63,837 nt of DNA from NCBI GenBank assembly GCA_038087875.1, contig CM075989.1, positions 5,084,001-5,147,837 on the forward strand, read 5' to 3'. The position numbers and the translations under genes were made by a program. The notes under the pieces were generated by a model. It was not told the DNA's origin, searched no databases, and saw only the letters and a list, made by a program, of their open reading frames with translations. This stretch comes from Malacoraja senta. Taxonomy: Eukaryota. The first letter of the stretch is position 1, and the number at the start of each line of letters is the position of its first letter. Shown piece after piece: positions 5,240 through 63,837 of this stretch.

Positions 5240-6866
5240 CAGTGCCCCCTCCATAATGTTTGGGACAAAGACCCATCATTTATTTATTTGCCTTTGTACT
5301 CCACAATTTGAGATTTGTAATAGAAAAAATCACATGTGGTAAAAGTGCACATTGTCAGATTTTAATAAAGACAATTTTCATAAATTTTGGTTTCACCCAT
5401 GTAGAAATTGCAGCAGTGTTTATACATAGTCGCCCCCCATTTCAGGGCACCATAATGTTTGGAACACAGCATTGTCATGTAAATGAAAGTAGTTATGTTT
5501 AGTATTTGTTGCATATCCTTTGAATACTTGAAGTCTGCGATTCATGGCCATCACGCTGGGTGTCTTCTCTGATGATGCTCTGCCAGGCCTGTATTGCAGC
5601 CATCTTTAACTTATGCTTATCTTGAGGGCTAGTCCCCTTCAGTTTTCTCTTCAGCATATAAAAGGCATGCTCAATAGAGTTCAGATCGGGTGATTGATTT
5701 GGCCACTCAAGAATTGACCATTTTTTAGATTTGAAAAACTCCTTTGTTGCTTTAGCAGTATGTTTGGGATCATTGTCTTGCTGTAGAATGAATCGCCGGC
5801 CAATGAGTTTTGAGGCATTTGTTTGAACTTGAGCAGATAGAATGTGTCTATGCACTTCAGAATTCATTATGCTACTACCATCAGCATTTGTATCATCAAT
5901 GAAGATAAGTGAGTCAGCACCTTCAGCAGCCAAACATGCCTAGGCCACCACCATGTTTCACAGATGAGATGGTATGCTTTGGATCTTGGGCAGTTCCTTC
6001 TCTCCTCCATACTTTGCTCTTGCCATCACTCTGATATAAGTTAATCTTCATCTCATCTGTCCACAAGACCTTTTTCCAGAACGATGGTTGCTCTTTTAAG
6101 TACTTATTGGCAAACTGTAACCCGGCCATCCTATTTTTTGCAGCTAATCAGTGGTTTGCATCTTGCCTCTGTATTTCTGTTCATGAAGTCTTCTGTGGAC
6201 AGTGGTCATTGACAAATCCACACCTGACTCCTGAAGAGTGTTTCTGATCTGTCGGACAAGTGTTTGGGGATTTCTCTTTATTATGGAGAGAATTCTTCTG
6301 TCATCAGCTGCGGAGGTCTTCCTTGGCCTGCCAGTCCCTTTGCAATTGGTAAGCTCACCAGTGCTCTCTTTCTTCTTAACGATGTTCCAAACAGCTGATT
6401 TTGGTAAACCTAAGTTTTGGCTGATGTCTCTAACAGATTTATTCTTGTTTCTCAGACTCATAATGGTTTCTTTGACTTTCATTGGCACAACATATTGGCC
6501 CGCATGTTGATAAACAGCAATAAAAGTTTCCAAAGGTGATGGAAAGACAGGAGGAAAGACTAGGTGCTGAGAGCTCTCTTATACCTGCATTAAGGAGGCA
6601 ATTAAACACACCTGAGCAATTACAAACGCCTGTGAAGCCATGTGTCCCAAACATTATGGTGCCCTGAAATGGGAGGATTATGTATAAACACAGCTGTAAT
6701 TTCTACATGGTGAAACCAAAATGTATAAAAATACCCTTTAATAAAATCTGACTGTGCACTTTGACCACATGTGTTTTTTTTTTAATATCACAAATCTCAA
6801 ATTGTGGAGTACAGTGGCAAATAAATAAATGATGGGTCTTTGACTCAAACATTATGGAGGGCACTG
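5240..6866 (-). mobile_element. Near full-length Tc1 (DD34E) transposon, copy B, ~225-bp IR/DR TIRs, TA TSD
   Basis: TA|CAGTGCCCCCTCCATAATGTTTGGGAC ... CAAACATTATGGAGGGCACTG|TA; inner direct repeat CAGGGCACCATAATGTTTGG in each TIR. Confidence 0.96.
5499..6506 (-). pseudogene. Frameshifted Tc1 transposase
   Basis: Three ORF pieces: HTH with GRPRK (6144-6533), WTDE (5923-6129), QQDNDPKH...SPDLNSIE with 34 residues between D and E (5499-5933). Confidence 0.93.
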
Positions 6867-8473: not shown

Positions 8474-9324
8474 CTGCAATAAAATGTTAACACGAGGAAC
8501 AAAATATTAATTTCACATTAATATTTACAGACAACATTTGGAAAAGTCTAACATTAGGAAAAACAGATAAAGGCAAAACATTGTTTGAATGCGATAAGTT
8601 CTGATGTACCTGTACCAACAACAAGTACATCTAATTACAGGTCTGTAATATCATTATCTACCTCAAATCAATTGCTGTAGAAATCTTCATCCTTGCCTCT
8701 GATACCTAAAGAAATTACTTTTCCAATGTTATCAAGTCCATTTCCATTCCATTCTACTTTTCACAATCACAAAGTAATAAGACATTAAAAATACTGCCCA
8801 TCAAGTCTTAAGTCTCTCTAGGTTCCATTCAATCATCAACCTACACATATACTGGCTACCAAGCAAGCAATTCTATGTAAAATTCATGCCCATTTTTAGA
8901 TAATCCAGTCTTTTAGATAATTTTTAGATAATCCAGTCGATCCCAACCCATCAGCCCAATAACCTTCAATAAGCTCACGAAACTGTGACCTCTTGATCTT
9001 CTCCAAAATTTCATCCTACCACTCCCGACCTTTACCTGCCAAAGCCCGAAACAACAAACTACCTTCCTAAATAATTCTGTTTTTTGACTTCTCTTCCTAC
9101 TTTTATGATGCGCTTTAGTACCATCTCTCTGGTCAAGTTTTTCGGCTTTTCCCAGGTATATCATTATGTACCTTAATGCTCCTGCTTAATAATGTCATGA
9201 AGTCCCTGGGAATGTTTTGCAATGTTTGAAGGCCAATTGATGAGTAAATCTAGCAGAGTACATCCATAATGCTAATTCAGATATTGTTGTCATTGGGAGC
9301 TTGAATCCAGCATAATGGGAAGGT

Positions 9325-9515
9325 AGAGAAAAATGCTGGAGAAACTCAGCGGGTGAGGCAGCATCTATGGAGCGAAGGAAATAGGCAACGTTTCGGGCCC
9401 GAAACGTTGCCTATTTCCTTCGCTCCATAGATGCTGCATCACTCGCTGCGTTTCTCCAGCATTTTTGTCTACCTTCAATTTTCCAGCATCTGCAGTTCCT
9501 TCTTAAACATAAACT
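9325..9515. mobile_element. Palindromic (foldback) Penelope pLTR unit with 10-bp TSD
   Basis: Inverted arms centred on CAACGTTTCGGGCCCGAAACGTTG; ATGGGAAGGT at 9315-9324 and 9516-9525. Confidence 0.88.
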
Positions 9516-16557: not shown

Positions 16558-16847
16558 GTACACAAAAATGCTGGAGAAACTCAGCGGGTGCAGCAGCATC
16601 TATGGAGCGAAGGAAATAGGTAACGTTTCGGGCCGAAACCCTTCTTCAGACTGATAGGGGGTGGGGAGAAGAAAGGAAAAAAGGAAAAAGGCGGAGGAGG
16701 AGCCCGAGGGCTGGGGGAGGGGAGGAGACAACCAGATGGCTGATGAAGGGGAGGGGACAGCAAGGGCTAGCAGAATTGGGAGAATTCAATGTTCAAGCCC
16801 CCAGGATGTAGACTGCCCAAGCGGAATATGAGGTGCATTTCCTCCAA
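16558..16847 (-). mobile_element. Young Penelope 3' fragment (end of GIY-YIG ORF plus pLTR)
   Basis: Nearly identical to 57236-57525; intact hammerhead-like core at 16622-16649. Confidence 0.9.
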
Positions 16848-17411
16848 TGTGTTGCTCTTTACAATTCTCGGCTTGTTCCACCTTAAGAGAGTATTTTAAA
16901 TTGACTTGAAATCCAATTGGAAAATAAAAACCTTATGTTTTATCCTTTTATAAGGCGCATGGGAAAGACATGATCTGAATCTCTACAACTACATATTTGT
17001 AAGGTTCACAAAAAATGTGAAACATCAAGTGGAACAGAACTCCCCTTGAACAAATCACTTCAATTCTCAAGTGACTTTACAAAGTTTACTATAAACGTTT
17101 GTTTTCTTAGGCCCATACACACCTCACTCATGCCCCACTTCATCTTCATTGGATTGTAAAAATATTGCACCATAGCCCACACTCAGCACATTCAGGGCCA
17201 CAACTTTGACTGCAAAACACCTCACTACTAATGTTTTCTCTTAAATCAACTTGCATAATGTACATCACACTTATCAACACTTAATTTATGGAATCAATCT
17301 CATCTGTATTCTCCCGATTCTATTAACTTTCCAGCGTTTCTCCATAAAAGACATTACGCTAAAATGTACTCGGTTAAAATACCAAACCAAATAAGACACT
17401 GTCTATCAAAC

Positions 17412-26082: not shown

Positions 26083-26285
26083 TGTTCAAGAAGGAACTGC
26101 AGATGCTGGAAAATCAAAGGTAGACTAAAGTGCTGGAGAAACTCAGCGGGTGCAGCTGCATCTATGGAGCGAAGGAAATAGGCAACGTTTCGGGCCGAAA
26201 CCCTTCTTCCCGAATCGTTGCCTATTTCCTTCGCTCCATAGATGCTGCCGCACCCGCTGAGTTTCTCCAGCACTTTTGTCTACCC
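26083..26285. mobile_element. Palindromic Penelope pLTR unit
   Basis: ~85-bp inverted arms around CGGGCCGAAACCCTTCTTCCCG; yields mirror-image ORFs 25965-26273 and 26130-26357. Confidence 0.87.
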
Positions 26286-27585
26286 GCAAGAATGAATTTA
26301 CTGCTTTTCATTTTGCACAGAGCTCTGGAGCGAATACTAGAGAAGAAACTCTGTTGACTGTGCAGAATAATAACTGTAATAACTGAGCTCATTCATTACA
26401 ACTTCAATAATTATAGCTGCAAATTGTATGGACTGCCTGGAGTTTAAACTATATAAATTCTCAAGGAACATTGTTCAATTATGTTGATACCGACACACAG
26501 AGACACACTCACACACGTGATGGCCGTAGGATAGGTTGAAAGATTGGTTAAAAGATATTAGTTGACACAGAAAGAGTAAGGAGGTATGCCAGGAGTATAC
26601 ACTGCTCTACCAATTCACAGCTTAAGTACTGCACACAAGTGTTGTGGTCACAGTACAGAACTGATGCAATTACCCTTGAGAGAGCAGAGAAGAATTAAGA
26701 TGTTAATAATCAAGCATTGGACATTTGTTCGCTGTTTAAAAATGAAGGTTTTTTGTTTTGTTTTTGTGAAACAGTGAAAGCTTTAATGGAGGTGTGTAAA
26801 ATTCCAAGGAGCCTCAAACTAGTAAGTAGGAAGGACCCAATTCCCCTAACAGGAGATGTCAAAGACCACGAATGGCACATATTTAAGTTAATCTGTAGAA
26901 ATAGAAGAGGGGGTGTATGGAAAGGAGATAAGCATCTGGAACTCATTGCCAGAAAGGTGTCGATACAAAAAAAGACCCTAAATTAAAAAATTACTTGTAT
27001 GAGTATTTGAAAAGGCATGGCCTAGAGGATCACAGACCACAGGAAGTGCAAGTGAGTTAGTGCCTTTTTCAATCTGCATGGACATGGAACAAATGACATT
27101 GTGCTGTACATTTTCTATAATTCTATTAAGAATATGCTTTTGTAAATACTTATGCTTCAAAGTTTTATTAGCTTGTTAAGATTAGACACATGAAGACACC
27201 AAACTAAAAGGGTTATATATTTGGTGCCATTTGCAACATGTTCCATAACCCCATGTTTAGCTGTAAACACCCCAACTATCAGCTTTGTCTTTATCAGCTG
27301 TGAGGCATGTTATCTGCAAGTTACATATGGCCAGTTGCATGCTTCATAAACTCAGTGTCAAAAAGCAATAAGGAAGAACACACCACGAGAACAGACTAGT
27401 ATGGGAACAGGCCCTTTCCCTTTGACACACTATGTCTGCATCAAACATGACGCTAAATTAAACTAATCCCCATCGGACAGCACATGGTCTGTATCTTTCT
27501 ATTTTCTGTCTGTTTAGATGTCTAAATGCCTCTTCAATGTTCTACCACACATTCCCAGCCACCACCAGTCTTCATGTGCCTAATT

Positions 27586-29291: not shown

Positions 29292-29497
29292 TAGGTACAC
29301 AAAAATGCTGGAGAAACTCAGCGGGTGAGACAGCATCTATGGAGCGAAGGAATGGGTGACGTTACGGGTCGAAGGGTCTCGACCCGAAACGTCCCCCAAT
29401 CCTTCGCTCCATAGATGCTGCCTCACACGCCGAGTTTCTCCAGCATTTTTGTCTACCTTCGATTGTTCTAGCATCTTCAGTTCCTTCTTAAACAAGA
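29292..29497. mobile_element. Palindromic Penelope pLTR unit
   Basis: Inverted arms around GACGTTACGGGTCGAAGGGTCTCGACCCGAAACGTC; ATCAGATT on both flanks. Confidence 0.85.
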
Positions 29498-42233: not shown

Positions 42234-43908
42234 CAGTGCCCTCCATAATGTTTGGGACAAAGACCCATCATTTATTTATTTGCTTCTGTACTCCACAATT
42301 TGAGATTTGTAATAGAAAAAAATCTCATGTGGTTAAAGTGCACATTGTCAGATGATAATAAAGGCCATTTTTATACATTTTGGTTTCACCATGTAGAAAT
42401 TACAGCAGTGTTTATACATAGTCCCCCCCCCCCCCCCCCATTTCAGGGCACCATAATGTTTGGGACACAGCAATGACATGCAAATGAAAATAGTCATGTT
42501 TAGTATTTTGCTGCATATCCTTTGCATGCAATGACTGCTTGAAGTCTGCGATTCATGGACATCACCAGTTGCTGGGTGTCTTCTCTGGTGATGCTCTGCC
42601 AACCTGTATTGTAGCCATCTTTAGGTTATGCTTATTTTAGACAATAGACAATAGGTGCAGTAGGCCATTCGGCCCTGAGCCAGCACCGCCATTCAATGTG
42701 ATCATGGCTGATCATCCACAATTAGTACCCCGTTCCTGGCTTCTCCACATATCCCCTGACTCCGCTATCTTTAAGAGCCCTATCAAGCTCTCTCTTGAAA
42801 GTATCCAGAGAACCAGCCTCCACCACCCTCTGAGGCAGAGAATTCTGGGGCTAGTCCCCTCAGTTTTCTCTTCAGCATATAAAAGGCATGCTCAATTGGG
42901 TTCAGATCGACTTGGCCACTCAAGAATTGACCATTTTTTAGCTTTGAAAAACTCCTTTGTTGCTTTAGCAGTATGTTTGGGATCATTGTCGTGCTGTAGA
43001 CTGAACCGCTGGCCAATGAGTTTTGAGGCATTTGTTTGAACTTGAGCAGATAGGATGTGTCTATACACTTCAGAATTCATTATGCTACGACCATCAGCAG
43101 TTGTATCATCAATGAAGATAAGTGGGCCAGTACCTTCAACAGCAATACATGCCCAGGCCATAACACCCCCACCACCGTGTTTCACAGATGAGGTGGTATG
43201 CTTTGGATCTTGGGCAGTTCCTTCTCTCCTCCATACTTTGCTCTTGTCACTCTGATATACGTTAATCTTCGTCTCATCTGTCCACAAGACCTTTTTCCAG
43301 AACTGTGGTTGCTCTTTTAAGTATTCTTGGGTTTTTTCTTTATTACAGAGAGAATTCTCTGTCATCAGCTGTGGAGGTCTTCCTTGGCCTGCCAGTCCCT
43401 TTGTGATTAGTAAGCTCACCAGTGCTCTCGTTCTTCTTAATGATGTTCCAAACAGTTGATTTTGGTAAGCCCAAGGTTTGGCTGATGTCTCCAACAGTTT
43501 TATTCTCGTTTCTCAGCCTCATAATGGCTTCTTTGATTTTCATTGGTACAACTTTGATCCTCATGTTGATAAACAGCAATAAAAGTTTCCAAAGGTGATG
43601 GAAAGACTGGAGGAAAGACTAGGTGCTGAAAGCTCTTTTATACCTGCATTAAGGAGGCATTTAAACATACCTGAGCAATTACAAACACATGTGTCCCAAA
43701 CATTATGGTGCCCTGAAATGGGGGGGCTATGTATAAACACAGCTGTAATTTCTATATGGTGAAAACAAAATGTATAAAAATGGTCTTTATTAAAATCTGA
43801 CTGTGCACTTTAACCACATGTGATTGGTTCTTTTACAAATCCCAAATTGTGGAGTACCGAGGCAAATAAATAAATAATAGGTCTTTGTCCCAAACATTAT
43901 GGAGGGCA
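42234..43908 (-). mobile_element. Tc1 transposon, copy C (internal deletion, interrupted by CR1 tail at ~42639-42845)
   Basis: TA|CAGTGCCCTCCATAATGTTTGGGAC start; ORFs 43343-43579 and 42892-43494 (WTDETK, HDNDPKH); right TIR end eroded. Confidence 0.94.
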
Positions 43909-45831: not shown

Positions 45832-45932
45832 CTCTTAGTGTCAATGAACAATTGTCATTTCCACAGAGCGATATAGCATGGCTGTTGATATACAATTTAC
45901 CACAACAAACTCCTCATATCTATTGTACACAT

Positions 45933-46685
45933 GAGGAACTGCAGCTGCTGGCTCACAAACAAGGCAGTGCTGGAGTGGCTCAGTGGGACAGGCATGGTAG
46001 TTGGGGGAGAAAGCTGAATGAGAGGTGGGGGCAGGGAAAATTCTAGCAAGTAATAGGTGGATATAGGCGAGGGGGATTTTTGATTAGCAAATGGTTGGAC
46101 AGAGATGAAAAGACAAAAAGTATGAGATGAGGATAGAAGAGGCACGAAATGTGAAGCCAGTGGAAGTGGACTGTGAGAAGGGGAATGGGAGAAATGGGTG
46201 TGCATCCAGGTGGGGCATAAGGGGAAAATAGGAGGGAGAGGGGTGAGTGAGGAGTGTTGGTAGATTAGTTTCCAACAATTGGAGAATTCAATGTTCGTAC
46301 CATTGGATTGTAAGAAACCCAAGCAGAATACAAGGTGCTGTTCCTCGCCTCTGTGTGTGGCCTCACTCTGGCAATGGAGGAGGCCCCAGAACAAAAGGTC
46401 AGTATGGGAATGGGAAGAGTGCTTAAAATAGTTAGCAGCCGGGATATCCAGCTGACCAAGCAAGTGTTTGGTGAAACGGTCGGCTAGTCTATGCAATGTC
46501 TCACCAATGTAAAGGAGGCCACATCAGGAGCACCGAATGCAGCAGATGAGGTTGGAGGAGGTACACATGAACCTCTCACCTGGAAGCACTGCTGGGATCG
46601 CTGGATCAATATGAGGGAGCAGGTAAATGGACAGGTGTTAAATCTCCTGCGGTTGCAGGACAAAGTATCTGGGGAGGAAGTGGTT
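45933..46685 (-). mobile_element. Old Penelope fragment (GIY-YIG region plus 3' repeat)
   Basis: ORF 45897-46496 (HRLADRFTKHL...EEQHLVFCLGFL). Confidence 0.8.
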
Positions 46686-50347: not shown

Positions 50348-50526
50348 TTTAAGAAGGAACTGCAGATGCTGGAAAATCGAAGGTAGACAAAAATGCTGGA
50401 GAAACTCAGCTGATGCAGCATCTATGGAGCAAAGGAAATAGGCAACGTTTCGGGCCGAAACGTTGCATATTTCCTTCACTCCATAGATGCTGCTGCACCC
50501 GCTGAGTTTCTCCAGCATTTTTGTCT
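50348..50526. mobile_element. Palindromic Penelope pLTR unit with 14-bp TSD, ~100 bp from the first coding exon donor
   Basis: AACTCAAAGATGTG at 50334-50347 and 50527-50540; centre CAACGTTTCGGGCCGAAACGTTG. Confidence 0.9.
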
Positions 50527-50633
50527 AACTCAAAGATGTGCTTTGATGAGCCTTTCAAATGCAACAATGAGTCTTCAGCAACACATAATTGCTGTGCACC
50601 TATATATAGCGGAGAGGCAATTAATTTACTTAC

Positions 50634-50836
50634 TCTTTGGTCAGCAGTGGGCATGATTTCAGCAGGAATCGAGTTAGCGGGGTGTCCTGGAAAGTCAGGT
50701 CCGGAGAAGCAGTTGGGCTCTTGAGATTCAGGCATCTTACAATGATGTACAACACTGCGGCGACTGCGGCCAGCTTCATCCCATCAAACATGGCCGGCAT
50801 TTCCGGAGCAATCCTTACACTTTCGGAGTCTGCCAT
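50634..50836 (-). CDS. ABHD2: ABHD2 first coding exon (203 nt CDS; MADSESVRIAPEMPAMFDGMKLAAVAAVLYIIVRCLNLKSPTASPDLTFQDTPLTRFLLKSCPLLTK)
   Basis: Translation matches the vertebrate ABHD2 N-terminus (signal-anchor KLAAVAAVLYIIVRC). ATG at 50836 has A at -3 and G at +4. Likely acceptor ttgcAG at 50844-50843; donor GA|GTAAGT after 50634 (phase 2). Confidence 0.96.
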
Positions 50837-50970
50837 CGTTATCTGCAAGTTCTCTTTCAAGGAAAAAGAAAATGGTCAGCAGCTGCCAGTAACATAAATG
50901 AAATGGTTCAATGCTTAGAAATACATAGGCAAAATGACTTTGTGTGCAAAATTGATGATGGCACAATTCA

Positions 50971-51064
50971 TTCTGAAGAAGGGTCTCGACCCGAAACGTC
51001 ACCTATTTCTTTCGCTCCATAGATGCTGCCTCACCCGCTGCGTTTCTCCAGCATTTTTGTCTAC
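50971..51064 (+). mobile_element. Solo pLTR/hammerhead unit with 10-bp TSD
   Basis: GCACAATTCA at 50961-50970 and 51065-51074. Confidence 0.9.
50973..51000 (+). ncRNA. Putative minimal type I hammerhead ribozyme core
   Basis: CUGAAGA-A-GGGU(CUCG)ACCC-GAAAC-GUC. Conserved core boxes, stem II and GUC cleavage triplet are present; helix I pairing is weak. Confidence 0.6.
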
Positions 51065-51409
51065 GCACAATTCAAATCAATCCACGGTTTTAGTTGACAC
51101 ATAATAGTTCCCTGGAAGTGATTTATGGGGCGGGAGGAGTGAAAAATGAATATTTAGGTCCTGGTAGAAAACGACTACAGAGGAAGCAGTTGGATTTAAT
51201 GCTCCCTCGCTCTATACACAATCGGAATTTTCCATGCACATATATACTGCAAGACGAGTCAATCTTCAAGAGAAAAGGGAAAGTTTAAATATATATTTGC
51301 AGGCTTGTATAGCTATAGTGATAACTATAGTAAACTCCAAGTGTTTGCAACTATAATATTTTGCACTCTAAATTGCTGAGCCACAGCAGTCCATCTCGAC
51401 TCACAAAAG

Positions 51410-56069: not shown

Positions 56070-56854
56070 TACATACAACAAGTGATCCTCCGTCAGTTTC
56101 GCCACCTCCAACGTGACCCCACCACTCGCCACATCTTCCCATCTCCCCCCATGTCTGCCTTCCGCAAAGACCGCTCCCTCCGTAACTCCCTTGTCAATTC
56201 TTCCCTTCCTTCCCATACCACCCCCTCCCCTGGTACTTTCCCTTGCAACCGCAAGAGATGCAACACTTGTCCCTTCACCTCCCCCCTCTACTCCATTCAA
56301 GGACCCAAGCAGTCGTTCCAGGTGCGACAGAGGTTCACCTGCATCTACTACAACCTCATCTATTGCATCCGCTGCTCTAGATGCCAGCTGATCTACATCG
56401 GTGAGACCAAGCGGAGGCTTGGCGATCATTTCGCCGAACACCTCCGGTCGGTCCGCAATAACCAACCTGACCTCCCGGTGGCTCAGCACTTCAACTACCC
56501 CTCCCATTCCGTATCTGACCTCTCTGTCCTGGGTCTCCTCCATGGCCACAGCGAGCAACACCGTAAATTGGAGGAAATGCACCTCATATTCCGCTTGGGC
56601 AGTCTACATCCTGGGGGCTTGAACATTGAATTCTCCCAATTCTGCTAGCCCTTGCTGTCCCCTCCCCTTCATCAGCCATCCGGTTGTCTCCTCCCCTCCC
56701 CCAGCCCTCGGGCTCCTCCTCCGCCTTTTTCCTTTTTTCCTTTCTTCTCCCCACCCCCTATCAGTCTGAAGAAGGTTTTCGGCCCTATTTCCTATTTCCT
56801 TCGCTCCATAGATGCTGCTGCACCCGCTGAGTTTCTCCAGCATTTTTGTGTACC
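56070..56854 (+). mobile_element. Young 5'-truncated Penelope-like element (Neptune-type Cys linker + GIY-YIG endonuclease), 10-bp TSD
   Basis: Uninterrupted ORF to 56648: CNRKRCNTC, NLIYCIRCSRCQLIYIGETKRRLGDHFAEH, HFN, KLEE, GLN; TATATATCCT at 56060-56069/56855-56864. Confidence 0.93.
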
Positions 56855-57233
56855 TATATATCCTGGTATATATTGACAGCGCCGAAGTAGAGAAGTTTGA
56901 AAGTTCCAAGTTCCAAGGAGTAAATAACACCAGCAACTTGTCCTGGACAAGCCATATTGAAACAGCCAAGAAAGCACATCAACGCCTCTATTTCCTCAGA
57001 AGGCTTAGGAAATTTGGCAGGTCCCAGACAATTCTCACCAACAGATGCGCCATAGAAAGCATTCTATCGGGATGCATTACTGCATGGTTTTGGAACAGCT
57101 CCCCATCCAAGACAGCAAGAAATTGCAAAGAATTGTGGACGCAGCACAGACCCACGCAAACTAAGCTCCCTTCCATTGACTACATCTACACTTAATGTTG
57201 CCTCGGCAAGGCTCCCAGCATAATCAAGGACAA

Positions 57234-57754
57234 AGGTACACAAAAATGCTGGAGAAACTCAGCGGGTGCAGCAGCATCTATGGAGCGAAGGAAATAGGTA
57301 ACGTTTCGGGCCGAAACCCTTCTTCAGACTGATAGGGGGTGGGGAGAAGAAAGGAAAAAAGGAAAAGGAGGAGGAGGAGCCCGAGGGTTGGGGGAGGGGA
57401 GGAGACAACCAGATGGCTGATGAAGGGGAGGGGACAGCCAGGGCTAGCAGAATTGGGAGAATTCAACGTTCAGGCCACCAGGGTGTAGACTGCCCAAGCG
57501 GAATATGAGGTGCATTTCCTCCAATTTACGGTGTTGCTCGCTGTGGCCATGGAGGAGACCCAGGACAGAGAGGTCAGATACGGAATGGGAGGGGGAGTTG
57601 AAGTGCTGAGCCACCGGGAGTTCAGGTTGGTTATTGCGGACCGACCGGAGGTGTTCGGCGAAACGATCGCCAAGCCTCCGCTTGGTCTCACCGATGTAGA
57701 TCAGCTGGCATCTAGAGCAGCGAATGCAATAGATGAGGTTGGAGGAGATGCAGG
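57234..57754 (-). mobile_element. Young 5'-truncated Penelope-like element (GIY-YIG + pLTR)
   Basis: ORF 57444-57761 nearly identical to the plus copy; TAATCAAGGAC on both flanks. Confidence 0.93.
57300..57327 (-). ncRNA. Putative minimal hammerhead core (UUCG-loop, GUU variant)
   Basis: Reverse complement reads CTGAAGAAGGGTTTCGGCCCGAAACGTT, ~120 nt downstream of the GIY-YIG ORF stop; identical motif at 16622-16649. Confidence 0.55.
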
Positions 57755-58099
57755 TAATCAAGGACCCATACCCATAATCAAGGACAATACCTCTTCGCCT
57801 CTCTCCTATCAGGCAAGAGGAACAGAACCCTAAAAACGGATACTTCCAGATTCAGTTTCTCCCAGTATTATCAGGCAACTGAACCATCTTATCACCAACT
57901 GGAGAGCAGTCCCGAGCTACCATCTATCCCATTGGAAGCAGTCAGACTATCTATAATCAGATTGTCCTGGACTTATCTTGCACTAAACGTTATTTTGTTT
58001 TTCCTGTACCTGTACACTGGACAGCATGATTGTAATCATGTATAGTCTTTCTGCTGACTGGATAGCATGCAATAAAATGTGTTTGGATAAGGATAATAT

Positions 58100-58220
58100 A
58101 GATAGGTGACTTTTCGGGTTGAGACCCTTCTTCAGACGCAAGGAGGGCCCTGACCCGAAACGTCACCTGTGTTCTCCAAAGATGCTGCCTGACTCGCCGA
58201 GTTACTCCATCACTTTGTCT
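58100..58220. mobile_element. Back-to-back pLTR half-units
   Basis: GGTGACTTTTCGGGTTGAGACCCTTCTTCAGAC followed by GAGGGCCCTGACCCGAAACGTCACC. Confidence 0.7.
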
Positions 58221-59541: not shown

Positions 59542-61917
59542 GGTAATCTATTACTCCAACAATATGTCTATCCACAGAACAGGTCCTCCATTATTGTTGC
59601 TTGTCAAATCTCAAGTACCTCTCCTTTCGGTCTTCCAACTAAATCAGAATTTAGCTTGTATCCAATATCTGAGAGCCTGAACATCAGCCACTGAACCCCT
59701 TTGCCACAGTAAATAATGGTAGAACTGACCTCAATATTGCATTCTCATCTACCTGCCATAACCTTTAAAAAATATTCATGCATCTGTTTCCACCCGCCTT
59801 TGAAAAGGAGAGCTCCAATGACTCGTGGCCGTTGGAAATAAATGGTGCCATGACTTCAATTCTAGATTCTTTCACACGAGGAAACCGCCTTTCTCCATCC
59901 ACCCTGTCAGAATCATATACATTTCATTCAAATTACCTCATACTCTTTCAAACACATAGCCTAGATTTACTCATCTTTATTCATTAAAACAAACCTGTCA
60001 TTCCAAGTAATAGTCCGATAAATCTTTACCAAAAGACTTCCAAGACATTTACAATCATTTTATAAATTGAGATTATGGATGTTAATATCTGCACTAAGTT
60101 TACCAGAGTCCGAATGATTTGTAGGTAACAATGCCATTGAGACTGGAGATGAATGCGCTGGGGAGGTTTACTCCAATGTTGATTATTGTTTGCAATATTC
60201 TTGTGGGGATGTCAAGCCGAGATGCTTCTGGTGAGGCAGAACCCAAAGGCAATTATGCCATAGATTTCCAAATTACACACATGGTGCAAGAGAATTGAAA
60301 CTACCCAAGAGACAGCCCAGTTCCAACAGCTGCCCCCTTAGCATAAAAAAAGTAAACAAGCCTCTCATCATGTCAATAAATCCCCTCACCAGACAATCAC
60401 AGTAGATTCATAAAACACTCCCCTTCTTAAGTTACCTTGGTTACATCACAGAACAGTACAAGTGGTGATCATTAAGCCGATTGCACATCTTCCTTTTTGA
60501 ATGAGCTTTCCACAGCCCTGTTTGTTCCTTCCATAGCTCTCATTTCTACACCCCCCCCCCACCCACACTTCTACTCAGTTCTATCCTGTAATGCACCACC
60601 AAATATGCTTGAGGTATCCTTTCAGGCAGGGAACTCAAGATCCTAACTTTTGTTTAAAAAAAAAATCAGCAGCTCCAATCTAGTTTCTTTGAAAAAGACC
60701 TCAAATCTTTGATGCAAAACTGAATCCTCTTGATATATTTGGAAGGTCAGGTGGCATCTGTCAAGAGAAAAACAGAATTAAGGTTTCAGGTCAATGACCA
60801 TGTATTAGAATTTAAATCTTTGTCTTGCTTGTATTGATTGCCCCTCCTGCCAAAGGAACCAGATTGTGCTCATTCACTGAAATCAAAACCTTCCATGATC
60901 TGACCAACTTTTGAAAATCTCATTACCATTCTGAGCATGGAGAACATTTATAGTTTAACCTCTCACCAAATATGGTACCATTTTAATAAAACCTCAAACA
61001 CTTCTTACTACTCCTAAAGTTTGTTAAAATATGCCAGGTGCCAAACTAGTGACTTAAAGGTTTAAAATCCCAAGAAAGTGATCTTGCTTTTGGAAACAAG
61101 TTTCAAGAAACCACAAGCAGAATATTAATACAAGTTGCATGTGCTCTTCTACAGATTGTAACAAGCATTCGTTTATCAGTAACAGCCAAGTTGTCTGATC
61201 ATTCTCTTACGTTCCACTATTAGTTGTACACAAAAGATATTCACCCAAAAACCTTTCAAGAAGAAACAAAACTACAACTGAGGAGTTTCTTTCTCTCCAC
61301 TAATTCTGGTCTCAGAGGAATTTCTAATCTAAACTTCACAAATCAAAGATATTTCTTAAAGAACACAGCACAAAAACCAAAAGTAAAATCTAAAATGTCT
61401 GAAAGATGAAGCTGCTCCATATGCCGCAGGCCAATTTGACAAGCAAACCCAAGTTAGCGACTGTAAAACTCCATGTGTTTAGATTTCTTTTTTACCACTG
61501 TTATATTTGAAGCTTCAGATCAGAAAGTCTACAAGGAACAATCCAAAGCCATTTGATAGATAAATAAATGGTAAATCGGGTCACAGAGATTTGATGTTTT
61601 TAGCAATATGGTTGTCAATGGACATCCATTTTGGAATTCCAAAACTGATATGAAATCACCAAAAACATGTGATAACATGCAAGTTTCTTAAAATTCTATT
61701 TAAATTTGGGTGTGATTAACCCAAAATCAAAACTTCAACAGACTTGTTTTTCTATGATTATAAAATTAATATACTTCAGGAGCTACACTTCTAACCCCAC
61801 AAATCTGGATTCTATGTGTAGGAAAGAACTGCAGATGCTGGTTTAAATCGAAGGTAGACACAAAATGCTGGAGTAACTCAGCGGGTCAGGCAGCATCTCT
61901 GGAGAGAAGGAATGGGT

Positions 61918-61945
61918 GACGTTTCGGGTCGAGACCCTTCTTCAG
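61918..61945 (-). ncRNA. Putative minimal hammerhead core within a pLTR unit (~61815-61949)
   Basis: Reverse complement reads CTGAAGAAGGGTCTCGACCCGAAACGTC. Confidence 0.6.
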
Positions 61946-63837
61946 ACTCTAGATCAGTAAAAGTTTTACTTTTATATTGAGTGTTCATTTTGGCATAGTT
62001 ATTTGCACAGAATTGTAAGCAAGATATAATGAAAATTAAATAAAAAGCTGACATTTTAAATAGAAGCCAATTTAACCCATGGAAATGCATGTATTTTTCT
62101 CACTAGTAATTCAACACACCTTTGTTTTCGTTCTTACTACTATCAATTACTACTTTGAACTACGAAGCAATTTGTCTTAACACTATGCCACAAGGTTTGC
62201 ATCTTCAACATATTCACCAAGTCAGCAACAAAGGTGGTTTGCTGCACTGTGGTCAATTAAACTACGGACAACACATACAGATCAGGAATTTCCTGCAACA
62301 ATGATATAACAGTAATTAATTAACATATGGAAATCTCATTGAAAAAATTAGTGCAGTGAAAAATAACCTAATCATTATCATTAACAATAGATGCTTTTGA
62401 ATAATTCCAAGAGGCGTATCTAATTTCCAATTTCATTTGATAATACCAACTGGAAATTTCACAACTGTAATCTGATAAATGGTGAACTAACCTTTAAAAC
62501 TATGGCTAGATAGAGTGTCTAAGGCTACGCGTTTTTAATTAATTGGCTTCAAAACAAGAAATTGTCGTTTCGCAACATGGAACGTCTACAAAATCATCCG
62601 ACATGCTGTTATCTCTCAAAAAAGACAAAATATAGATTAGAAATGGAAATGGAACTGTGTAACTAGACATAGGTACTTAGTGAAAATTAGGGTCAGACAT
62701 ATTGGTCTAAACATTTGCCAGCAGACAAAAAACAGACAATGGAACAATATTTTCTGATCAGAGCTCTTTTTACAGCAGTGATCGTCTCAAGCTGTCATGG
62801 TGTTCCAGGATGGAGCTTCCGAGGCCAATGGTACAATAAGGCCAAGTCACCTCTCAGCTCACCCTGTCTTGTGGGACATTGCAGGTTGAAGGTTCGGGTT
62901 GATAGACATAAAATACTGGAGTAACTCAGCAGGTTAGGCTGCATCTCTGGAGAAAAGGAATAGGTGACATTTCGGGTCGAGACCATTCAGGTTGTTTGGC
63001 TTACACACGTGGAATAGTCAATGGCAAATGCAGATACTGGGCTTGGCAGCAGTGTATTTTACATAGCACTTAAATGAAGACTTCAGAAGATTCCGAAATG
63101 TTGTGGAAGACAGTAAAATGGTCGCTATTATCTTTTTTTTCTTTGCTCTTAGGAAACTGCAAGAAAATCTAGATTAAAGCAGAATAAGGTGTTCCTGACT
63201 GTAAAATATTGAATTCTCAAGCTCAGAGGACTAGACATTTTTACATAACAAAGACGAACAGCCACTGATGACTAATAGAACACTAGTGGATGAAACTAGT
63301 TTGTACGGTGGCAGTGATCCAGGGACAAATAGTAATACTAAATAAACAAAACAAAAAAAATTGGAGCTCAACCCACTGAGCATCAAAAGAAACTCATCTC
63401 TACAATTTTCAATCCTCTGTGAAACAGAACATTCTTTGCTTTGTGTTTTAATAAAAAATAATTCAAAGAGTAAACTGGTCGAAGGACACTTTCAAATCCA
63501 TTCCGCCAGCATTTATCTCAAGTTAACATTCCCGTAGTAAACATTTTAATTATGAATGTATCACAATGAAGAATATGCAGCAAAAGAGTTTTCAGGTCAG
63601 AGCACACAAAAGGATTTACATGATGGATGAAACCATTTGAGCTGTGATTGCAGTTAAAACATCACCTACACACGACTGTCATTATGAGCACAGCGTCTAC
63701 AAACTGCAGAGACAATCACAGTAAAATTTTACCCAGTAATTCAAAATATTTTGGATTTGAAATATCAAAAACAAGTCTTGTCATCACCTTCTCAAGGACA
63801 TCTCAGAACAGGCTTTAATGTTAGCCTTGTTTGCAAT

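Follow-up and report, generated by a model that had tools for sequence, protein, structure and literature searches.

The 28-nt motif at 50973..51000 of the window, by which we mean the whole 63,837-nt stretch of Malacoraja senta DNA analyzed here, is supported by its sequence as a minimal type I hammerhead in the terminal repeat (pLTR) of a Penelope-like element (PLE) of very high copy number. We judge it probable that a working element of this family cuts its RNA slowly after GUC/GUU as a protein-assisted dimer, and that the copy at 50973 does not cut. That the family carries or once carried a self-cleaving RNA is plausible; the activity is likely to be weak and confined to the working element. 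Most copies, the one at 50973 included, are unlikely to function as ribozymes. As a ribozyme discovery this means little, since PLE minimal hammerheads have already been published for many animals. The high motif load of the genome is of some value, and the role of PLE hammerheads could be studied in a young family such as this, whose open frames are long.

The motif and its surroundings in the window

A degenerate form of the 28-mer was scanned over both strands of the window, with 100 shuffles as the control. Positions are counted throughout with C3 of the hammerhead core as +1. Exact matches were found at 50973-51000 (+) and at 16622-16649, 57300-57327, and 61918-61945 (−), the same four sites that the sequence-only reading had given as intact. 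Nine matches were obtained at ≤3 mismatches and none in the 100 shuffles. A profile built from eight window copies (threshold E ≤0.01) detected 37 copies, among them all 14 of the degenerate copies named earlier; core, G10.1-C11.1 pair, and palindrome were all free of defects in 4 of the 37, namely the exact matches. Head-to-head inverted pLTR pairs were frequent, and Rfam miRNA matches in the window proved to be such pairs. The features discussed here are as follows.

50973..51000, forward strand: minimal hammerhead motif with CUGAAGA, an extra A, a 4-bp stem II with a CUCG loop, GAAA, and an ACGU palindrome; cut predicted after C51000
50971..51064, forward strand: focal insertion of 94 bp, made up of the motif and a 64-nt pLTR tail and starting 1-2 nt ahead of the core
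50961..50970, forward strand: left target-site duplication (TSD) of 10 bp, adjoining the focal insertion
51065..51074, forward strand: right TSD of 10 bp, adjoining the focal insertion
50634..50853, reverse strand: first coding exon of the host alpha/beta-hydrolase gene, ATG at 50836; limits read by eye
57234..57755, reverse strand: 5'-truncated element with the end of the GIY-YIG frame, a pyrimidine-rich 3' UTR, the intact motif 57300-57327 with a 2-bp helix I, and the tail
56071..56855, forward strand: 5'-truncated element that keeps the Cys linker and the GIY-YIG frame; motif at 56766 disrupted by a deletion
16558..16857, reverse strand: 5'-truncated element with the intact motif 16622-16649, in the sense of the host gene, in the intron between the exons at ~20.3 kb and ~11.3 kb
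61854..61948, reverse strand: solo pLTR copy with the intact motif 61918-61945 and a 2-bp helix I, followed by the optional extension
50383..50527, no strand assigned: two pLTR stumps forming a head-to-head inverted pair, neither of them with the 5' half of the core
9323-9480, 26120-26289, 29295-29456, and 58102-58220, no strand assigned: further head-to-head inverted pairs of pLTR stumps without the 5' half of the core

The anatomy was as claimed, with an extra A after A9 (A at +8, between 9 and 10.1), an ACGU palindrome at 15.2-16.2 without a helix III loop, a 2-bp helix I, and a stem II containing either U-G with a UUCG loop or U-A with a CUCG loop. However, more subfamilies exist than the two that had been distinguished, older ones having a CCCG loop. 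The description of the 50973 copy as intact holds for its core but not for helix I, in which one of two pairs is left because the 5' end lies 1-2 nt before the core and G2.2 is missing.

The window consists mostly of introns of a minus-strand alpha/beta-hydrolase gene, which we take to be ABHD2-like, with exons spanning 8.4-50.9 kb. Alpha/beta-hydrolase Pfam matches lie at ~34.7 and ~20.3 kb on the minus strand of the window, and further exons at ~50.7, 35.85, 11.3, and 8.4 kb, with another at ~9066 of locus L042. Searches of the PDB with two host exons gave no matches. The focal insertion is intronic, with ~110 nt between it and the splice acceptor of the first coding exon. Because it is antisense to the gene, it is not present in the host pre-mRNA as a hammerhead. 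The other three intact copies share the host-gene strand, and one of them is clearly intronic. We regard the focal copy as debris, a short leftover insertion, and cutting of RNA by it as unlikely.

The first coding exon has pLTR stumps within ~110 nt on either side, three in all (50383-50527 and 50971-51064), and pairing between these is conceivable in the pre-mRNA. The window also holds remnants of Tc1/mariner-type transposases with DDE_3 matches (5499-6578 and 42892-43512, both −) and C-terminal LINE fragments (1620-1991, 2220-2846, and 56812-57195, all +), two of which have Pfam ALKBH8_N matches. The LINE fragment at 56.86-57.23 kb sits between two Penelope copies facing each other tail-to-tail.

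The parent element and its abundance

The GIY-YIG fragment in the window served as the lead to long frames at other loci. Locus L036 is a partial tandem. Its truncated copy contains a motif at 2753, which lies 165 nt ahead of an ATG; the frame that follows encodes reverse transcriptase (RT), a CX4CX2C linker, and GIY-YIG. After the frame come a pyrimidine-rich UTR of ~120 nt and, ~120 nt past the GIY-YIG stop, the second motif at 6822. Both motifs are intact; they lie 4,069 nt apart and flank the RT-endonuclease frame on the sense strand. The frame is interrupted once, in its N-terminal part. Pfam matches at L036 to RVT_1 (E 6.5e-06) and GIY-YIG (E 0.0012) were both below the Pfam cut-offs, and Atlas neighbors with a score of 0.98 carry RVT_1, GIY-YIG, and HTH_animal. 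A CX2-5CxxC linker between RT and endonuclease is a Neptune trait common to Nematis, and the Cys linker seen at this place in the L036 and L037 proteins points to the Neptune or Nematis clade.

All traits of EN+ PLEs were present, namely RT followed by a C-terminal GIY-YIG, partial tandems, inverted 5' copies, an optional 30-40-bp tail, and TSDs. Copies terminate near +94 or +130, i.e. ~64 or ~100 nt beyond the cut site; TSDs of at least 9 bp were found for 29 of 301 copies, the control giving 7 of 898. Microhomology is common at the 5' junctions. The proposed identity as a Penelope minimal hammerhead was borne out: the four traits described in PMC4209133 were seen to the extent that a single family can display them, the motif lying on the sense strand in the pLTR of an element encoding RT and GIY-YIG.

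Between its N-terminal domain and RT, the ORF (L036:3100-4300, L037, and L040) contains a long, variable region of Pro-rich repeats. A copy at L039:1-1680 with an 820-aa frame has a 3' UTR that has grown into a tandem minisatellite of at least 1.6 kb. In the window, a GIY-YIG remnant at 45897-46640 (−) is older and diverged and has a long pyrimidine-rich UTR; part of its tail is kept, and the hammerhead region has apparently been deleted.

Exact motifs in the 1.94-Gb genome number 21,179 + 20,816 = 41,995, and the reversed control gave none. This load of ~21,600 per Gb may be set against ~4,500 per Gb in axolotl (126,247 motifs in 28.21 Gb), for which the descriptors differ from those used here. 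The genome was sampled on its ten largest contigs, from which 158 stretches of 10 kb each (1.58 Mb) were taken at round coordinates. The profile matched 650 times, or 0.41 per kb, in this sample, and the window, with 37 copies in 64 kb, has a similar density. Core, stem II, and palindrome are kept in 47 of the 650 copies, 38 of these 47 also having the 2-bp helix I, and none of the 47 has an intact same-strand partner within 5 kb inside its own 10-kb stretch. A separate locus, L202 (G000:C1:4012000-4021999), is built of ~2.45-kb tandem units, each with about four tRNA genes and two opposed pLTR stumps in which the NUH region is broken.

Conservation, folding, and copy ends

Clustering of the 343 near-complete copies among the 650 gave eight clusters with mean divergences of 8-26%, which are not independent lineages. 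The CUGANGA, GAAA, and NUH core is identical in all eight cluster majorities. Greater conservation of the core than of flanking pLTR sequence, the lack of which had been named as grounds for refutation, was found at a borderline level: none of 11 core positions is variable among the majorities, as against 19 of 62 in the tail (Fisher p = 0.056, three CpG-decay variants set aside), 43 of the 62 tail positions being conserved. Five changes fall within the motif: at two loop bases, at C17 (to U), and at one U-A pair each in stem II and helix I (to U-G). All are tolerated ones that preserve pairing or H17. As judged by eye, the UTR upstream of the motif appears unrelated between subfamilies while TCAGT persists. 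The two computational checks proposed earlier came out negative. No two-sided compensatory change was found among 13 sequences, the covariation score being 0.078 compared with 0.116 in shuffles, and Rfam hammerhead models had no match at E ≤1 across the window or at E ≤10 in L036:2600-2950.

Among the 343 copies the G10.1-C11.1 pair is G-C in 215 and G-T, through CpG decay, in 58, and the palindrome has C-G in 174, with CpG-decay forms making up most of the remainder. Helix I consists of U-A (or U-G) and G-C; its third position is A-C in 203 of 343, and neither folds nor pair counts gave a longer helix. The catalytic G12 is altered in 28% of individual copies, the same as its CpG partner and thus the plain CpG rate; CpG-rich core bases in general are retained in subfamily majorities and lost at 21-29% in individual copies. 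Non-CpG changes affect 109 of 2,039 core bases (5.3%), 1,185 of 14,132 tail bases (8.4%), and 221 of 2,038 stem II bases (10.8%). The lower core value is not what pure neutrality predicts and may be caused by the choice of complete copies. The dispersed copies decay without evident selection. A head-to-head pair at L092:767-776 has several A-to-G changes in the motif in both arms, possibly scars of RNA editing.

Folding was modeled without tertiary or protein contributions. When six natural copies were folded with at least 40 nt of tail, the probability of stem II was ≤0.05 because the purine-rich core pairs with a pyrimidine run past the cut site or, given more upstream sequence, with the UTR. 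For the eight cluster majorities at 95 nt the hammerhead-shaped fold lay 2.0-6.5 kcal/mol above the minimum, the gap being 5.7-6.5 kcal/mol in the four youngest clusters and 2.0-4.4 kcal/mol in the four oldest. At 33 nt stem II forms with a probability of 0.94-1.0, with the exception of the youngest cluster (0.14). The ACGU duplex is worth −1.7 kcal/mol. Since the competing fold is favored, the naked monomer is predicted to be inactive, which would be consistent with the weak cleavage of dimers (PMC4209133) and the protein-assisted cleavage (PMC11167929) reported in two published studies.

Young copies were defined by at least 92% identity to L036 (n = 47). Their 5' ends lie at −6 to +2 in 16 cases (7 at −2), at −13 to −1620 in 14, and at +5 to +50 in 17. 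The possibility that copies begin at the cut site was rejected, as none of the 47 starts at +29 and one at +30. Genome-wide, the five bases upstream of the core are kept in 10,265 of 19,101 exact young motifs (46% lost, or 11.7% per base), and tails run two bases past the cut site in 45,164 of 46,429 copies (97.3%; 1.4% lost per base); the two pattern sets represent slightly different subfamilies, and chance matches slightly inflate the cut-site set. Many insertions end at the leading edge of the motif. Because nearly all copies cross the cut site, the inserted cDNA derives from uncut RNA, and the copy ends lend genome-scale support to the in vitro result that uncut RNA is inserted.

The copy ends also point to a testable RNA start just ahead of the core. 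The five-base loss may mark this start, and our best guess for its position is the initiator-like TCAGT. The initiator consensus resembles this sequence. An Inr-like element has been reported in a pLTR. Loose ends at −6 to −3 were also seen in contigs of presumed RNA runs from organisms B and C. A candidate cap-derived extra G was counted in 9 of 20 copies of a first sample and by hand in 35 of the first 100 of 1,410 matches (p = 0.057), which is a weak test. The pile-up could otherwise reflect a 3' splice site as in D. virilis, a pyrimidine tract and CAG lying directly ahead of the motif; among the best 15 of 37 and the best 15 of 164 joints in the contigs of presumed RNA runs, none was a GT..AG joint at this CAG. 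It could also reflect fold-back of the cDNA at TCAG-T-CTGA. A fuller version of the start-site reading, which we put forward tentatively and hold to be possible rather than likely, is that RNA starts at TCAGT, 2-3 nt before the core, so limiting helix I to 2 bp. Solo copies would then represent the first 95-130 nt as complete run-off (strong-stop-like) cDNAs. By removing a ~31-nt capped piece, cleavage would act as a protein-triggered mRNA off switch, not as maturation. The 5' ends piled at −3 to +1, their absence from the cut site, and the conservation of TCAG without a pairing partner favor this reading.

For the preferred reading, that of a terminal-repeat hammerhead active in the working element, we count the anatomy of a published minimal hammerhead, the pLTR-ORF-pLTR arrangement of L036, the invariant core, copies that span the cut site, the lack of same-strand partners, and the decay of G12 in copies. 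Against it we count the borderline core-tail contrast, the lack of compensatory change, the 2-bp helix I, the competing fold, the slower non-CpG decay of the core, and the cleavage of just 1 of 9 Xenopus dimer elements (bioRxiv 10.64898/2026.07.22.740005). Transcription would begin in the upstream pLTR and two motifs would pair through ACGU to form helix III, while the element protein would help the RNA to leave its more stable inactive fold. Cutting would trim or inactivate part of the transcripts and would not make the insertion template, and the dispersed copies would be by-products of short reverse transcripts.

Alternatively, the motif may no longer cleave in this lineage; its hammerhead shape would then be an inherited relic, and the same bases would be kept because they act as a promoter or as a signal for protein binding or reverse transcription. 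The short helix I, the greater strength of the competing fold in the four youngest clusters compared with the oldest four, the largely conserved tail, the fact that cut RNA is not used for insertion, and the success of Naiad PLEs, which thrive without canonical hammerheads, all fit such a relic. However, all changes in the motif between subfamilies preserve pairing or leave an allowed base at H17, the majorities retain CpG-rich core bases that decay in copies, and the folding model leaves out tertiary and protein contributions; we consider a relic unlikely. The many ~95-130-nt solo copies with uniform ends and TSDs might alternatively belong to a non-autonomous element of their own, similar to a retrozyme or SINE and replicating itself via hammerhead processing, and retrozymes have been derived from pLTRs (bioRxiv 10.64898/2026.07.22.740005). 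This is very improbable given that the copies are dispersed monomers with ends away from the cut site, that 7 of 8 clusters contain copies with endonuclease-like sequence upstream, and that the one tandem array examined (2.45 kb) is a tRNA cluster with broken motifs. Retrozyme identity was itself rejected on the count of same-strand neighbors in the sample, which gave no tandem units. Co-option of intronic copies to cut or shape the ABHD2-like pre-mRNA could draw on the nearness of the focal copy to a splice acceptor and on the three intact copies on the host strand, but the orientation and missing helix I pair of the focal copy, the decay of G12, and the ordinary copy density of the window leave it with hardly any probability.

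Comparison with known systems

We found no publication describing the motif of this particular family in a partial coverage of the literature outside Repbase; the supplements of bioRxiv 10.64898/2026.07.22.740005 may list it. In supplement file 2 of PMC4209133 no shark or skate name was found, and file 1 may still list the family. The comparison draws on the papers cited and also on PMC8557442, PMC6765202, PMC6155905, and PMC3846280. Head-to-head inverted copies have been described for PLEs.

The motif shares with the PLE minimal hammerheads of Cervera and De la Peña (2014, PMC4209133) the CUGANGA-H / GAAA / NUH core, the extra base after 9, the G10.1-C11.1 pair, the palindromic 15.2-16.2, the position in the pLTR, and the occurrence mainly as single dispersed copies. 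It differs in a 2-bp helix I with U-A or U-G and a 4-bp stem II. Published helices I are mostly of 3-5 bp and of 2 bp in few cases, which puts the family at the short end (PMC4209133). The 41,995 exact motifs compare with ~4,000 in coelacanth and ~9,000 in Xenopus (PMC4209133), counts obtained with differing descriptors. A canonical type I hammerhead stands further off, with a 6-bp helix I and loop contacts as against 2 bp here and no Rfam match.

PAc, the Anolis Poseidon element (Frangieh et al. 2024, PMC11167929), is alike in having a pLTR hammerhead, two 3' end positions ~35 nt apart, and insertion from uncut RNA. Its cleavage needs protein and is dispensable for insertion, and its two initiation sites and optional tail resemble the copy ends at +94 and +130 (PMC11167929). 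In contrast, the PAc ORF starts inside stem II, whereas here the ORF starts ~165 nt past the core, the protein has the Neptune/Nematis Cys linker, and activity is putative. The pLTR of D. virilis Penelope (PMC4209133; Schostak et al. 2008, PMC2377424) also has a 2-bp helix I, an AG just 5' of helix I, and a promoter within the pLTR; its AG is the end of a proven intron, whereas here a putative CAG acceptor follows a pyrimidine tract. Non-LTR retrozymes (PMC7229834; bioRxiv 10.64898/2026.07.22.740005), found in one chondrichthyan according to the latter, have a type I hammerhead and a tie to PLE pLTRs in common with the family. They are tandem non-coding units with a hammerhead in each, whereas the copies described here are dispersed and arose by truncation of a coding element.
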